Origin: Candidatus Hodarchaeum mangrovi
GTDB lineage: Archaea > Asgardarchaeota > Heimdallarchaeia > Hodarchaeales > Hodarchaeaceae
Direction of reading: 5' to 3'
Length of the DNA stretch: 11,614 nt
NCBI GenBank assembly: GCA_016839515.1
Contig: JAEOUE010000050.1
Span: 1-11,614, forward strand
Both the position numbers and the translations under genes were made by a program. Below are positions 7,741-11,614 of the stretch, in pieces (position 1 is the stretch's first letter; every line of letters begins with the position of its first letter). The notes under the pieces are model-generated. The model saw only the letters and a program-made list of their open reading frames with translations, searched no databases and had not been told where the DNA came from.

Positions 7741-8142
7741 TTATATTTCGTGACATGCGTGAACAGTCCATTCAATAAGTGGTAGGAGACTGTTTCGTAG
7801 TCCTATGCCTCTTGGAGTTAAAAAATACTCAACTCGGGGAGGAATTTCAGTAAATTGTTCTCTATTGAGGAGTTTGATTTCTTCAAGCTCTCTCAGTCGA
7901 GAAGATAATGTTGTATCGCTTATCACATCTGAAGTTATCCCGTTAACTCGTGTTTTAATCTCTGAATATCTTAATCTTTTAATTGTACCCCTAGATTCAT
8001 CAGATTCAATGGGAAAAATCATTATAATAAATATCATCCATTTTTTACTTATTGATCGTAAGTATTTTATAAGTGGTTTTAAGCAAATACCATTAATATT
8101 AACTGGTAAGCATTTTTGAACCATTTGTAGTTGAGTATCCAA
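7741..8142 (-). CDS. HxlR family (MarR/DUF24) winged-helix transcriptional regulator
   Basis: SKKWMIFII, LRYSEI, ISDTTLSSRLRELEE, REQFTEIPPRVEYFLTPRG and LLPLIEW are hallmark HxlR motifs. TTG start preceded by GGTGGA. Cys11, Cys20 and Cys130 are present. Confidence 0.93.
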   Translation of the reverse strand: MDTQLQMVQKCLPVNINGICLKPLIKYLRSISKKWMIFIIMIFPIESDESRGTIKRLRYSEIKTRVNGITSDVISDTTLSSRLRELEEIKLLNREQFTEIPPRVEYFLTPRGIGLRNSLLPLIEWTVHACHEI

Positions 8143-8229: not shown

Positions 8230-8248
8230 TTGTAAAAAGTGAATGAAA

Positions 8249-8410
8249 ATGTCAATAAAGAAAGAATGTTCTTGTGGAAAACATGAAAAAAGTCATCATA
8301 AAGAAATGAACCGTTCAGAAAGGATTAAGCACCTTAATGAATGTCTTAAGGATGTCATAGAAAGACTTGAATGTATTAAAGAGATAGCAGCAGAGCTATC
8401 ATCAGATTAG
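8249..8410 (+). CDS. Small CxC/His-rich coiled-coil protein (53 aa), not in the ORF track
   Basis: MSIKKECSCGKHEKSHHKEMNRSERIKHLNECLKDVIERLECIKEIAAELSSD*. AGTGA lies 6 nt before the ATG, the same geometry as the ABC ATPase gene. It fills the gap exactly, ending 3 nt from the convergent DUF134 stop, and has a clean heptad pattern. Confidence 0.75.
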   Translation: MSIKKECSCGKHEKSHHKEMNRSERIKHLNECLKDVIERLECIKEIAAELSSD

Positions 8411-8413
8411 AAA

Positions 8414-8749
8414 TCAAGAGGCTTCGAGATTCGATATGGACAGATGAATGAGTGTTTTGCCTGAAGTCAGAGCAAATATAACCTTCCGTCGAGCCTCTTG
8501 TAAAATTCTCCAAAAAGTACCACGAGAAATGTGCATTTTTTCAGCTGCTTGTTCTTGGGTAAAATTTTCCCTATCCACAAGTAAAAGTGCTTCTAACTCG
8601 ACCTTTGTAAGAACCAAATCGACTTTTCCTTCTGAAGATTCCCAATTTCGTCCAACATAAGGTTCTATCCTTGGTCTTCCTCCTCTAAATCGTCTTCCTC
8701 TACCACCACCACGCCCCCTACCAGAATTAGGGTCTGTAATTCTAAACAC
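8414..8749 (-). CDS. DUF134 (UPF0251) family putative DNA-binding protein
   Basis: GRPR...LVLTKVELEALLLVDRENFTQEQAAEKMHISRGTFWRILQEARRKVIFALTSGK matches the DUF134 sigma70-region-4-like HTH pattern. The start is likely GTG 8749 or ATT 8740 rather than TTG 8800, which lies inside an operator-like box. Confidence 0.9.
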   Translation of the reverse strand: MFRITDPNSGRGRGGGRGRRFRGGRPRIEPYVGRNWESSEGKVDLVLTKVELEALLLVDRENFTQEQAAEKMHISRGTFWRILQEARRKVIFALTSGKTLIHLSISNLEAS

Positions 8750-8785
8750 ACTCCAATTAGACTCTTGAGAGTTTTTTTGTTTGTT

Positions 8786-8803
8786 TTCGAGCGAATGCAA
8801 AAA
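8786..8803. promoter_or_regulatory. Operator-like palindrome, copy 3 (upstream of DUF134)
   Basis: TTCGAGC-GAAT-GCAAAAA matches TTTGWGC-N4-GCWCAAA at 12 of 14 arm positions and is adjacent to a minus-strand AATATAAG TATA-like element. Confidence 0.5.
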
Positions 8804-8933
8804 AACTTATATTGCGTATCTGTGATATCTTGTACTTAATTAATTTTTCGTATATCTTAATATCAAAAATGTCTTTATATAACTAAAAGAAATATTAGAA
8901 AAAGAATGATTGAAAATTCGAAAATATATTACT

Positions 8934-8982
8934 TTTGTGCAATAGCACAAATTTTATATAGCTTTTTGTGCAATAGCTCATT
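8934..8982. promoter_or_regulatory. Two operator-like palindromes flanking a TATA box upstream of DUF5320
   Basis: TTTGTGC-AATA-GCACAAA (8934-8951, perfect arms), TTTATATA (8953-8960) and TTTGTGC-AATA-GCTCATT (8965-8982). The 14-bp direct repeat TTTTGTGCAATAGC recurs with a 31-bp period. Confidence 0.75.
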
Positions 8983-8983
8983 G

Positions 8984-9331
8984 GTGATAAAAATTCCAAG
9001 AGGAAATAGAACTGGTCCATGGGGACAAGGCCCAAGGACTGGACGAGCTTTAGGGTACTGTGCTGGTTATCCCACACCTGGTTATACAAAAGGACCCAGA
9101 ATGGGGTGGGGAAGTGGTATTAGAGGAGGACGGGGACGAGGTTGGTGGAATTATCCAGGATTTTTTAATCAACCAATAGAACTACCATCAATAGCTTTAC
9201 CACCTTGGACACCCCAGTATAGTCCAGAAGATGAATCAAAATATTTAGAAGAATCACTAAATGTTTTGAAAAAGGAAATAGAAATGATTGAGAAAAGATT
9301 AGAAGAATTATCTGGAAAAAAAAAGGAATAA
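8984..9331 (+). CDS. DUF5320 family protein (Gly/Arg-rich N-terminus, C-terminal coiled coil)
   Basis: PRGNRTGPWGQGPRTGRALGYCAGYPTPGY...GRGRG...PEDESKYLEESLNVLKKEIEMIEKRLEEL is the recognisable DUF5320 layout. The ORF-track extension from 8906 runs through the promoter and is unlikely. Start is GTG 8984 or ATT 8993. Confidence 0.88.
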   Translation: MIKIPRGNRTGPWGQGPRTGRALGYCAGYPTPGYTKGPRMGWGSGIRGGRGRGWWNYPGFFNQPIELPSIALPPWTPQYSPEDESKYLEESLNVLKKEIEMIEKRLEELSGKKKE

Positions 9332-9363
9332 TCTCTTTTCTATCTAATCTTTTCTTTTTTTTC
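9332..9363 (+). terminator. Archaeal-type oligo-T terminator region
   Basis: Pyrimidine/T-run tract (tctcttttctatctaatcttttcttttttttc) immediately after the DUF5320 stop, with no hairpin. Confidence 0.45.
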
Positions 9364-9446: not shown

Positions 9447-10244
9447 ATGCAAACCAAATTACAAAAGGATATTGATGAAATGAAGGAAAACATTAAGCAA
9501 ATTAAACATAAGATTGTTATTCTTTCAGGTAAAGGTGGTGTAGGCAAATCAACGGTAGCTGCGAACCTAGCTTTGGCATTTGCTAAAAAATTTCCTAATA
9601 AAGTAGGAATAGCAGATCTTGATTTTTCAGGCCCAAATATCCCTAAAATATTAGGAGTAGAGAACGAAAGAATCTCATCAAAAAAAGGAGACAAGTATGA
9701 ACCTGTAGAAGGACCTTTAGGACTAAAAATTATCTCAATGGCATTTTTTCTTGACTCCAAAACCACTCCTGTTATTTGGCGTGGTCCTTTAAAAATTAAA
9801 GCACTCCAACAATTCCTGACTGATTTTGCTTGGGGAGATCTAGAGTTCTTAATTTTTGATATGCCTCCAGGTACAGGAGATGAGGCAATATCAATCATGC
9901 AATTGATCCCTGAGATGGAAGGTGTTGTTATAGTTACTACCCCTCAAGAAGTGTCTTTACTAGACACAGGAAAATCTTTGGTTATGTCTCGTAAAATGGA
10001 TCGTCCAATCTTAGGGATTATTGAGAATATGTCGACCTTCAAATGTCCCACGTGTGAGACAGAATCACCTATCTTTGGAACAGGTGGAGGTGCCCAAATG
10101 GCTAAAGAATTTAGTACTGAACTTATTGGGCAGATTCCAATTGACCCAATGATTAGAATTCAAGAAGATAAAGGGATTTCGGAAGCTTTTGAATATTTCA
10201 ATCCTATAGTTAAAGTTTTACTTGCAAAATTTAATAAAAAATAA
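9447..10244 (+). CDS. mrp: Mrp/NBP35 (ApbC) family P-loop ATPase, iron-sulfur cluster carrier
   Basis: Deviant Walker A SGKGGVGKST, DLDFSGPNIP, PVIWRGP, WGDLEFLIFDMPPGTGD, VTTPQEVS and ENMSTFKCPTC (cluster-binding CxxC). Confidence 0.96.
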   Translation: MQTKLQKDIDEMKENIKQIKHKIVILSGKGGVGKSTVAANLALAFAKKFPNKVGIADLDFSGPNIPKILGVENERISSKKGDKYEPVEGPLGLKIISMAFFLDSKTTPVIWRGPLKIKALQQFLTDFAWGDLEFLIFDMPPGTGDEAISIMQLIPEMEGVVIVTTPQEVSLLDTGKSLVMSRKMDRPILGIIENMSTFKCPTCETESPIFGTGGGAQMAKEFSTELIGQIPIDPMIRIQEDKGISEAFEYFNPIVKVLLAKFNKK

Positions 10245-10402
10245 ATTTAATAGGGTCAATGCCAAGTGGAAAATTCTTTATATTCATACTAATATGATGA
10301 AGTACCTTATTTTCGACTTTATTTTGTTCTAGGCAGTTTACTATCGAAAAACATTACTTAGATTGTTACAAGAACTCTTATCATGAATCATCATTAATTA
10401 TT

Positions 10403-11614
10403 TCAAATTGTCTTAATATTAAAAAGGTGACTTTGATAAGGTTGCAGGTCAATAAAAAGTCCATTTTGTTTTAATTCTTCTATTTTTCTGTTGTAAATTT
10501 TTTCATTCAAAATATCGTTAAGTTCTAAATATTCATTAACCTTAAATTCTTTCTCTAAGTGAAGGAAGACATTTCCTTGGGTTTGAATTGCTGTATAATT
10601 CACTATTACTATAGCTAATTTCTTAGAATGAGGGATAAACCACTCCCATGCCAAGATATTCCCTGTTGAAGTCTCTAATAATAACCATTGACCATTTTGA
10701 ATGGTATATTGATTTGTAAATTTTAATATTCGTTCATAATCATTTTGAATGTTTTTATCTAAGCTTTCTTTTTGTTTTCGTTTTAATTGAATAGGTAATT
10801 TGATTTTTTCGCCCTCTAACTGTCCTTGATGATATAAACTCAATCCTGGAATTGTTCCCATGATGATGGCAGCCGCAATTGATCGTCCATATCCAAAAAC
10901 ATTAATGGCTCGTTGTTCATCATGGTTCTCAATGAACCTCATACTCTTTCTCTGGTAATTTATGTCTGCAGTAAGATGACCTCGTATTAAAGCGATATCT
11001 TCTTGCATTAATCGGTCGTAGAGTCTTTTATCATAAGTGTAGTCAAATCCAAGAGATTGTAATTTCCATCCTAGATCCCAATATACTTCTGCTAGAAAAA
11101 TAAAGTCTGGATGGTTAGATTTCACTTTTTTTATCGCATCTACCCAGAATTCTGATTTAAGGCTTTCTAGTGCTTTTTCTTGAAAATAAAACCCCCATGT
11201 TTTGTTTATGATGTCATTTAAACAAAGCATCGCCATATCACAGCGAATACCATCACAAACTCTAGCTATCTGATTTTGGAGTATTTCTATCATATATTTA
11301 CGCGTTTTTTCATTAAAATAATTCATCTGAAACGTATCAGTCCATGGAGAAAAGTATGGATCCTTTCCATAAGCAATCCACTGAATTCCTTTCTTTGTAA
11401 CTACTTCCTTAAATAAAGCCTTTTCTTCTGGAACATTTCCTAATGAGATAAAGTATTCAGGATTCGTAATAACAAGTTCAGAAGCATTTCCAAAATGGTT
11501 TGGGACAAAATCCAGCATTAATTTTGTACCCAAATCGTTTAATTTTCGTTTAAGAAGGATTAAATCCTCATGAAATCCTAATTGCGGATTTATTTCATAT
11601 TTAATAATAGAATA
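10403..11614 (-). CDS. Alpha-amylase family glycoside hydrolase (GH13), 5'-truncated by the window edge
   Basis: Region I MLDFVPNH, nucleophile DGIRCDMA, acid/base FLAEVYW, region IV RFIENHDE. The frame is open to position 11614 (YSIIKYEINPQLGFHEDL...), so 11533 is not the true start. Confidence 0.93.
   Translation of the reverse strand, partial: YSIIKYEINPQLGFHEDLILLKRKLNDLGTKLMLDFVPNHFGNASELVITNPEYFISLGNVPEEKALFKEVVTKKGIQWIAYGKDPYFSPWTDTFQMNYFNEKTRKYMIEILQNQIARVCDGIRCDMAMLCLNDIINKTWGFYFQEKALESLKSEFWVDAIKKVKSNHPDFIFLAEVYWDLGWKLQSLGFDYTYDKRLYDRLMQEDIALIRGHLTADINYQRKSMRFIENHDEQRAINVFGYGRSIAAAIIMGTIPGLSLYHQGQLEGEKIKLPIQLKRKQKESLDKNIQNDYERILKFTNQYTIQNGQWLLLETSTGNILAWEWFIPHSKKLAIVIVNYTAIQTQGNVFLHLEKEFKVNEYLELNDILNEKIYNRKIEELKQNGLFIDLQPYQSHLFNIKTI

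Follow-up and report, generated by a model that had tools for sequence, protein, structure and literature searches.

Candidate DUF134 operators flanking the TATA box of a DUF5320 gene in Candidatus Hodarchaeum mangrovi

Genes of the locus and their start codons

The window analysed here is an 11,614-nucleotide stretch of contig JAEOUE010000050.1 of Candidatus Hodarchaeum mangrovi, and the region of interest within it lies between two divergent genes. The minus-strand gene (8414–8749) encodes a DUF134 protein of 111 aa with matches to PF02001, Sigma70_r4_2 and HTH_23. Its PF02001 score (60.2 bits, cut-off 27; E 3e-16) places it in the family, and a whole-genome profile search for DUF134 returned the same place with 60 bits. 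The plus-strand gene (8984–9331) encodes a DUF5320 protein of 115 aa that matches PF17253 over profile positions 2–99 of 99 (94.5 bits, cut-off 27; E 9.7e-27) and is likewise a member of its family; its N-terminus carries the conserved PRGNRTGP...GYCAG, its middle is rich in Gly, Trp and Arg, and its C-terminal segment is coiled-coil-like. Downstream of DUF5320 on the same strand is an Mrp/NBP35-type P-loop ATPase gene (9447–10244; PF10609, E 2.9e-86), preceded by a T-rich tract at 9350–9362, and a minus-strand open reading frame at 7741–8142 was assigned to HxlR by Pfam. Among named loci, those closest to this one are labelled Candidatus Hodarchaeota, Heimdallarchaeota, Hermodarchaeota and Promethearchaeota, all of them Asgard.

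The limits of both central genes differ from those of the original open reading frames, which ran from 8414 to 8800 (minus strand) for DUF134 and from 8906 to 9331 (plus strand) for DUF5320. DUF134 starts at GTG 8749 and not at TTG 8800, a position shared by its orthologues, with ATG in locus L013. A preliminary description of the window had placed the DUF5320 start at ATG 8906, which comparison with orthologues replaces by GTG 8984: the orthologues have an ATG right before the conserved PRG and behind a GGTGAT box, and the window has ATT there and an in-frame GTG at 8984. A near-identical strain from another study's metagenome (run X4) has A at 8984, making the codon ATG; its contig differs from the window at 8 positions over 1201 bp, none of them within the three sites described below. 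Since DUF5320 starts at GTG 8984, these sites are non-coding promoter DNA. The locus had no read cover in RNA run X23, a single run.

Three palindromic sites and their frequency in the genome

Three copies of the palindrome TTTGWGC-N4-GCWCAAA, with 0, 2 and 2 mismatches, lie where the preliminary description had put them. The distal site O1 (8934–8951, no strand assigned) reads TTTGTGCAATAGCACAAA and is a perfect 7-N4-7 palindrome, TTTGTGC-AATA-GCACAAA. The proximal site O2 (8965–8982, plus strand, TTTGTGCAATAGCTCATT) is located between the TATA box and the predicted start; its left half fits the consensus and its right half is GCTCATT in place of GCACAAA. The starts of O1 and O2 are 31 bp apart with TTTATATA in between, as had also been claimed. 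The third copy, O3 (8786–8803, minus strand, TTCGAGCGAATGCAAAAA; TTTTTGCATTCGCTCGAA when read on the DUF134 strand), is located 37 nt 5′ of the DUF134 GTG start.

These three are the only matches with at most two mismatches in the window, where 0.20 (sd 0.42) are expected by chance and where none of 200 shuffles reached three. In the whole genome (4,006,905 bp in 348 contigs, 32.9% GC) we found one perfect match, which is O1, no one-mismatch match and 45 two-mismatch matches, compared with zero-order expectations of 0.05, 2.2 and 43, respectively. The two-mismatch matches are thus at the genome-wide noise level, 45 being seen vs 43 expected. Three of the 46 matches of the genome fall inside 200 bp at this locus, and a 13-mer common to O1 and O2 (TTTGTGCAATAGC, at 8934 and 8965) is absent elsewhere in the genome. 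A degenerate 15-mer derived from proximal-type sites has three genomic matches, two of them here and one within a coding gene, inside a 468-aa open reading frame on contig C323.

O3 is weak by itself and degenerate in this genome, and its support is positional conservation. It has 3 mismatches to the strict palindrome, a level reached by 167 sites in the genome (about one per 24 kb), and its 6 mismatches in 18 positions to the proximal-site consensus are what the best match in a random window of 270 bp typically has by chance.

No further promoter sites and no wider regulon were found in our motif scans of the organism's own genome, so that the genome-wide scan proposed earlier recovered this locus and detected no other regulon members. 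There is no copy of the motif near the genome's own two other DUF134 genes (contig C92) or its second DUF5320 copy (contig C176), and a TGAAT-N4-ATTCA palindrome sought near the C92 genes was not there either. The Mrp gene is likewise without a site or motif match.

Promoter architecture

The TATA box of the DUF5320 promoter is the octamer TTTATATA at 8953–8960 (plus strand), and a TATA-like octamer stands at the same place in the aligned promoters. Archaeal TATA boxes are centred about 26–27 bp before the start, and from this usual geometry the transcription start of DUF5320 is predicted near 8983. O1 abuts the TATA box, so that its right arm occupies the BRE position, and O2 fills the interval towards the predicted start. 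The claimed placement of the sites at the BRE and the predicted start, on either side of the TATA box, is conserved across the aligned promoters. TBP is encoded in the genome, which marks it as archaeal.

On the DUF134 side, the TATA-like element mentioned earlier is present (AATATAAG, 8806–8813, minus strand) directly 5′ of O3 on the DUF134 strand. The third copy beside it is degenerate, however, and the box is poorly conserved, an A/T-rich box occurring at this position in four of the five divergent loci of the genus. A second candidate is a conserved block at 8835–8843 (no strand assigned, CTTAATTAA), kept in four of the five divergent loci and not in L007. It contains TTAATTAA at 8836–8843, which also occurs 5′ of the DUF134 gene in L062, a locus from another family. 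This block may be an alternative DUF134 TATA box or a site for another factor; as the TATA box it would put O3 at about +8 to +27. The two candidates place O3 just before or just after the start, and either placement suggests mild autorepression.

A bacterial sigma-70 promoter scan, which is not applicable to an archaeon, gave 4 promoters where 3.4 were expected, which is noise. A literature search for Asgard promoters with mapped start sites returned nothing pertinent.

Conservation within the genus

We found DUF5320 in 17 of the other 21 genus genomes. Two sites are carried by 20 of the 23 DUF5320 genes (18 genomes, with the two genes of the organism itself counted), in 19 cases in the order O1-TATA-O2. 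The common layout of these 19 genes is TTTTGTGC-N4-GCACAAAA, a TATA-like octamer, TTTTGTGCAATAGCTCAT(T/A), GGTGAT and the start codon. Genome G015 has a different geometry with two O2-type sites 24 bp apart in opposite orientation. The pair is missing in three genes: the organism's own second copy on C176, a gene with a degenerate promoter in G010 and a copy in G014 that lies directly behind Mrp. Since related genomes are not independent samples, all conservation counts given here should be read with this in mind.

The promoter alignment has 21 rows, two of which represent one G021 promoter on two overlapping contig ends. O1 has no mismatch to the strict palindrome in 15 rows, one in 4 rows, two in 1 row and seven in 1 row. 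O2 is nearly invariant, including its spacer, and its asymmetric right half GCTCAT(T/A) is always kept. The spacing between O1 and O2 is 31 bp in 8 rows, 32 bp in 12 and 33 bp in 1, which corresponds to three helical turns. Among the matches listed for the 22 genus genomes (the organism itself included), all 15 perfect palindromes sit just 5′ of DUF5320, two of the 15 again being the single G021 promoter on overlapping contig ends.

The alignment also bears on a reading in which the palindromes are nucleic-acid structures or general promoter parts, such as a hairpin terminator or leader or a duplicated inverted BRE, with no regulator involved. A bacterial-type terminator scan does flag O1 with the T run that follows it, and the TATA box together with the two site arms that face it (right arm of O1, left arm of O2) makes up a nearly symmetric stretch. 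However, the arms are conserved as sequence without compensatory changes and it is the 4-bp spacer that varies, the conserved asymmetric right half of O2 could not pair, and the element occurs at DUF5320 and DUF134 promoters only and so is no general promoter feature. There is also no co-directional plus-strand gene that ends upstream of O1, and an intrinsic terminator at O1 was rejected on this ground together with the behavior of the arms. We give a reading without a regulator almost no credence.

The sites are kept at DUF5320 genes that do not adjoin DUF134, with DUF134 encoded elsewhere in those genomes. Five loci in the genus are divergent, and the four others all have a counterpart of O3: TTTTTGCAATAGCTCAAA in L007, TTTTTGCAATCGCTCATT in L008, TTTGTGCAATCGTTCTCT in L011 and TTTGTTCAATCGCTCAGC in L013. 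With 2, 3, 4 and 4 mismatches to the proximal consensus, these counterparts are better than the organism's own O3. DUF134 orthologues that are not divergent from DUF5320 (tandem or unlinked) have no site within 270 bp upstream, their best matches of 5–8 mismatches being like those of random windows, and autoregulation through an own site is thus not general. The proposal that DUF134 autoregulates is therefore supported in part, with an O3-type site in the five divergent loci and no own site at the other orthologues.

Conservation in other archaea

In 70 archaeal loci with a DUF134 relative (324 kb) we found 52 matches at two mismatches or fewer, where about 4 would be expected at the rate of the organism's own genome (46 in 4.0 Mb). 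Nearly all of them lie 100–250 bp 5′ of the DUF134 match, and in many cases a divergent DUF5320 gene is on the other side. A related palindrome separates the DUF134 from the DUF5320 gene in loci of Heimdall, Bathyarchaeota and other archaea. In the Bathyarchaeota it has the form TTTGTGCTTATGCACACA and often occurs as two copies 23–25 bp apart. In locus L062, which belongs to another family of the same class, DUF134 is divergent from a DUF5320-like gene that has two NifX-like genes behind it, and the 135-bp spacer contains TTTTGTGCATATGAACAAAA and a second, degenerate palindrome. The co-occurrence of the motif with DUF134 and DUF5320 loci, proposed earlier as a check, therefore holds both in the genus and across archaeal phyla. 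No simple common palindrome was found in six Thermoplasmatota, Methanobacteriota and Altiarchaeales loci with different DUF134 helices.

The DUF134 protein

DUF134 begins with an Arg/Gly-rich arm that is disordered and contains an invariant R-x-G-R-P; a three-helix HTH follows, with the recognition helix ISRGTFWRIL at residues 74–83, and two beta-strands are predicted to serve as a dimer interface. The AlphaFold model has a mean pLDDT of 75, with values above 95 in the HTH and disorder in residues 1–40. The Sigma70_r4_2 match scores 27.4 bits against a cut-off of 25.7. In a profile search of the PDB, DUF134 matched the DNA-binding domain of Bacillus subtilis DeoR (7bhy_A, E 2.9e-6; 8r7y_A, E 5.8e-5), and the profile alignment sets ISRGTxWR of DUF134 opposite ISRPTVSR of DeoR. 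The best fold match is the same domain on its operator (7bhy_A, rmsd 0.7 Å over 42 columns with 38% identity, at a weak Foldseek E of 0.029), with many sigma region 4 structures next. By profile and fold match, DUF134 thus has an N-terminal HTH of the type found in the SorC/DeoR family. A SorC-type domain for binding a sugar-phosphate effector and forming the tetramer is absent: Pfam gives only DUF134 and HTH matches, the PDB matches are confined to the HTH, and just 25 residues follow it. DUF134 is therefore not a SorC-family member, the effector-binding domain being missing, and no sensor domain is recognisable in it.

Structure modelling predicts that DUF134 is a symmetric dimer. The homodimer prediction scored 0.76 vs 0.00 for the best control, with contact agreement of at least 96% among runs and a partner pLDDT of at least 80; 20 of 30 proteins with structures solved as one-chain pairs and 1 of 23 with structures solved as single chains reached this mark. 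In the prediction the two chains meet through residues 42–60 and 87–104, and the recognition helix stays exposed over its first half. Structures of DeoR-domain dimers on DNA have been solved before, so that part of this result may stem from resemblance to them. In B. subtilis DeoR, R34 and R39 are described as contacting bases (PMC11229326), and because of their spacing of five we tentatively take them to be the two Arg of ISRPTVSR.

The probable binding protein

Taken together, the three sites are a conserved regulatory element with DUF134 as its most likely binder. Several observations point to DUF134, among them its DeoR-like HTH, the predicted symmetric dimer, its occurrence in the same genomes as DUF5320 and a co-variation of site and recognition helix. 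An exact TGTG-N6-CACA core is found within 270 bp upstream of 37 of the 61 DUF134 genes whose helix is SRG[TS]xWR and of none of the 22 genes with other helices, the two helix groups having been defined after seeing the data. The set started from 103 hits, of which 87 were kept after duplicate removal and 83 had at least 150 bp upstream. Among the 24 SRG[TS]xWR genes without the exact core nearby, some have one-mismatch variants or an unlinked target. Several DUF134 genes with other helices carry different palindromes of the same 7-N4-7 shape: helix LSKTALWRLI goes with TTTGGGTTATTTCCCAAA (one of two sites of this type), TSRNTIWRIV with TTTGTGATATATCATAAA and ISRASFWRLL with TTTGAGATATTTCTCAAT.

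The operators could instead belong to another regulator, a DtxR-family iron repressor, the HxlR protein or some other factor, with DUF134 merely a co-regulated neighbor. Such a reading would fit the site-bearing DUF5320 genes that are not beside DUF134 in several genomes, and the DtxR-like gene that lies between DUF5320 and DUF134 in G011, G007 and G017, with FeoA and FeoB then following in G011. However, five genomes with the sites (the organism's own, G003, G010, G015 and G019) gave no DtxR-like protein when searched, whereas three genomes without the sites (G001, G002 and G016) do have it. As this phyletic pattern contradicts that of the motif, a DtxR-family operator was rejected. The HxlR protein, which the preliminary description had named as a rival, was checked with tblastn and found among the related loci only at the window's own locus, and so is no conserved neighbor. 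The palindrome adjoins DUF134 genes in distant taxa, and across phyla its core and the recognition helix of DUF134 change together, both of which speak against a different regulator. We regard this reading as clearly unlikely.

Binding and autoregulation by the DUF5320 protein itself, alone or in a complex with DUF134, is harder to separate by gene content. Of the 21 other genomes of the genus, 16 have both DUF5320 and a close DUF134 orthologue (E 1e-25 or better), and in four neither was found (G001, G002, G006 and G016). In the remaining one, G008 (80% complete), DUF5320 and its sites are present and we could find no close DUF134 orthologue. Because of this near-perfect co-occurrence, the phyletic pattern cannot tell DUF134 from DUF5320 as the binder. 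The sites accompany the DUF5320 gene wherever it is located, and the Arg/Gly-rich composition of the DUF5320 protein and its coiled-coil-like tail would fit this reading. On the other hand, PF17253 is its sole Pfam match and it has no recognised DNA-binding domain, and the co-variation of the sites with the DUF134 helix would be left unexplained. None of the four longer DUF134 homologues found is a fusion to DUF5320, which is weak evidence, and two of the four are fusions with a NifX-like domain. We consider DUF5320 a very unlikely binder.

Discussion

We propose that the three sites are operators of a dimer of the adjacent DUF134 protein, with O1 and O2 serving repression of DUF5320 and O3 a milder autorepression in a single-locus regulon, and we put the probability of this reading at roughly 0.6. 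As a mechanism this would be an ordinary local pair of HTH repressor and operator. The 111-aa DUF134 protein would bind its operators as a symmetric dimer through its sigma-region-4/DeoR-type HTH. A first dimer would sit on O1, whose right arm covers the BRE position beside the TATA box, and a second on O2, in the interval from the TATA box to the predicted transcription start. Three helical turns apart, the two would lie on the same face of the DNA and may hinder both the binding of TFB and TBP and the recruitment of RNA polymerase, so that DUF5320 would be repressed. O3 at the DUF134 promoter would be weaker and its autorepression correspondingly milder. The regulon in the organism's own genome would be this single locus, and in relatives DUF134 would act in trans on unlinked DUF5320 genes. 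The earlier proposal that DUF134 both binds here and represses is thus supported, binding by the evidence above and repression, more tentatively, by the position of the sites.

The direction of the effect is suggested by where the sites lie. Archaeal regulators bound inside the promoter are described as hindering TBP and TFB and those bound further downstream as hindering the recruitment of RNA polymerase, both acting as repressors (PMC5937170). Repression is the likelier direction because of the positions of O1 and O2 together with these statements on bound regulators. The alternative is that DUF134 binds and activates, or has a dual role, helping TFB and TBP to assemble through O1, with O2 serving some other purpose. 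The BRE consensus is purine/A-rich, and the right arm of O1, CACAAA(A/T), resembles it and ends right at the TATA box. In L062 the palindrome lies upstream of a candidate DUF134 TATA box, and archaeal activators work by promoting the binding of TBP or TFB (PMC5937170). However, O1 overlaps the BRE position and does not lie upstream of it, and in 19 of the 23 promoters O2 occupies the interval from the TATA box to the predicted start, a position at which RNA polymerase would be blocked according to the same source (PMC5937170). We consider activation unlikely.

The closest solved relative of the DUF134 HTH is B. subtilis DeoR of the SorC family (7bhy, 8r7y), and the recognition helices of the two align. 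The arrangement of the sites is also similar, since the dra-nupC-pdp operator of DeoR combines a palindrome with a degenerate second half-operator that overlaps the promoter, and in both systems the regulator gene adjoins its target, with DeoR acting as a repressor (PMC11229326). The two differ in oligomerization: DeoR is described as a tetramer formed through its effector domain (PMC11229326), whereas DUF134 is predicted to dimerize through its beta-strands and helix 3. They also differ in their half-sites (TTGAA for DeoR vs TTTGTGC here) and in promoter type, which is sigma-70 for DeoR and archaeal TATA/BRE here. DUF134 shares its three-helix HTH fold with region 4 of sigma-70 and ECF factors. 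Unlike these it has no region 2, and its archaeal host has no bacterial RNA polymerase. Because of the palindromic sites and the predicted homodimer, DUF134 would be a classical regulator and not an initiation factor.

Among archaeal regulators, Lrp and Phr of Pyrococcus furiosus have other protein folds than DUF134 and carry sensor parts. Their sites are comparable in being semi-palindromic and in lying in or just downstream of the core promoter, where they block TBP/TFB or RNA polymerase, and Lrp represses its own gene (PMC5937170). Two sites that flank the TATA box three turns apart distinguish the present element from the Lrp and Phr sites as they are summarised there (PMC5937170).

A parallel of another kind is offered by bacteria. 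The orp genes include Mrp-type ATPases and a NifX-like protein, as DUF134 neighborhoods do. OrpR of Desulfovibrio vulgaris has a local regulon that is described as consisting of the adjacent divergent operons only, and responds to redox through an Fe-S cluster (PMC8359166). Unlike DUF134, OrpR is a large sigma-54 enhancer-binding activator with PAS and AAA+ domains (PMC8359166).

The DUF134 family of small HTH proteins is old and is widely distributed among anaerobes. We know of no function assigned to it, and to our knowledge gene regulation in Asgard archaea is almost unstudied. Judged from titles and abstracts, our literature search found no paper on the function of DUF134 (UPF0251, PF02001) or DUF5320. 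With the present analysis DUF134 gains a predicted binding site, TTTGTGC-N4-GCACAAA, together with a target gene, a promoter architecture and a testable role, and recognition-helix residues can be named whose change should alter its specificity. The element would also be a simple starting point for in vitro work on Asgard regulation. What is added here beyond the sites themselves is the Hodarchaeota-type pair that flanks the TATA box, the probable control in trans of unlinked DUF5320 copies, the counts for co-variation of helix and site, and the exclusion of the HxlR and DtxR-like proteins as binders.

A wider reading, which we hold to be improbable, sees DUF134 and DUF5320 as a conserved feedback module of two genes that anaerobic archaea (Asgard, Bathyarchaeia and others) share and that responds to metal through a signal supplied in trans. 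Here the sensor-less DUF134 dimer would shut off DUF5320, its R-x-G-R-P arm perhaps reading the A/T-rich spacer or flanks in the manner of an AT-hook. The signal might come from DUF5320, which has one conserved Cys besides its Gly/Arg/Trp-rich region and coiled-coil-like tail, or from a NifX-like metal-cluster carrier, and either would report iron or iron-sulfur-cluster status. If this reading were true, the module would represent a so far undescribed kind of metal-responsive circuit. For the operator reading preferred here, the gene neighborhoods of relatives and the NifX-like fusions suggest, as a lead only, that iron or iron-sulfur status is the releasing signal. The neighbors that point to iron and iron-sulfur handling are the Mrp gene in the window, the NifX-like genes in L062, the DtxR-like gene in G011, G007 and G017, and FeoA and FeoB in G011.

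Genomic context of DUF134 and DUF5320

Certain members of the genus have the gene order DUF5320, a DtxR-like gene (PF02742) and DUF134 (locus L012 of genome G011; locus L014 of genome G007), and in G011 these three genes are followed by FeoA and FeoB. The presence of a DtxR-like gene and FeoA/FeoB beside DUF5320 and DUF134 suggests a link between the module and ferrous iron uptake. DUF134 is also found naturally fused to a NifX-like domain (PF02579) in two longer homologues, P0004 and P0005, where this metal-cluster-binding domain may act as the sensor.

The genome of Candidatus Hodarchaeum mangrovi itself (G000) carries two further DUF134 paralogues, which face each other on contig C92 at about 9800-11150 (loci L001 and L003) with a 166-aa gene between them. 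Both have Cys-rich C-terminal extensions and a recognition helix that differs from that of the window protein, being ISQSSVSRHL in one of them. Neither the TTTGTGC-N4-GCACAAA-type palindrome of the window nor a TGAAT-N4-ATTCA palindrome was found at these paralogues when each was looked for. Downstream of them lies a gene that, judged by eye, is NifX-like in appearance.

Variation in promoters and intergenic regions

A second DUF5320-like gene is located at the end of contig C176 of the same genome (2907-3212; loci L005 and L160). The A/T-rich promoter in front of it lacks the operator, and its match to the DUF5320 profile is interrupted by two stop codons, a TGA and a TAG; this copy may represent a pseudogene or else a short paralogue. 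In G015, another member of the genus, the DUF5320 promoter departs from the layout in which O1 and O2 flank the TATA box: it contains two directly repeated O2-type sites (locus L149, about 1874-1930) at a distance of 24 bp, with their orientation reversed relative to that layout. Within the divergent spacer, the CTTAATTAA block at 8835-8843 is conserved in four of the five DUF134/DUF5320 spacers of this type. Two relatives have ACTTAATTAAGT at this position, a perfect 12-bp palindrome, and in a locus from a different family TTAATTAA is likewise present upstream of DUF134; the block may serve as the TATA box of DUF134 or be bound by another factor. On the other side of DUF134, a 55-aa open reading frame (8243-8410, + strand) lies between the HxlR gene and the DUF134 3′ end, convergent with DUF134, and had no match among Pfam profiles.

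DUF5320 start codon and protein conservation

Comparison of orthologues places ATT, within 8981-8998 of the window, where most have the DUF5320 start ATG and one relative has TTG. An in-frame GTG is present at 8984; a near-identical strain, recovered in the metagenome of a separate study, has A at this position, giving ATG. The start codon seems to have shifted four codons upstream in the window lineage. In the protein alignment, the N-terminal PRG..TGP...TGRGLGYC(A/S)G, which includes the single conserved Cys, is invariant across orthologues, followed by a low-complexity Gly/Trp/Arg-rich middle, which varies in length and is shortest in the window copy, and a conserved C-terminal EDESKYLE...IEKRLEEL segment.
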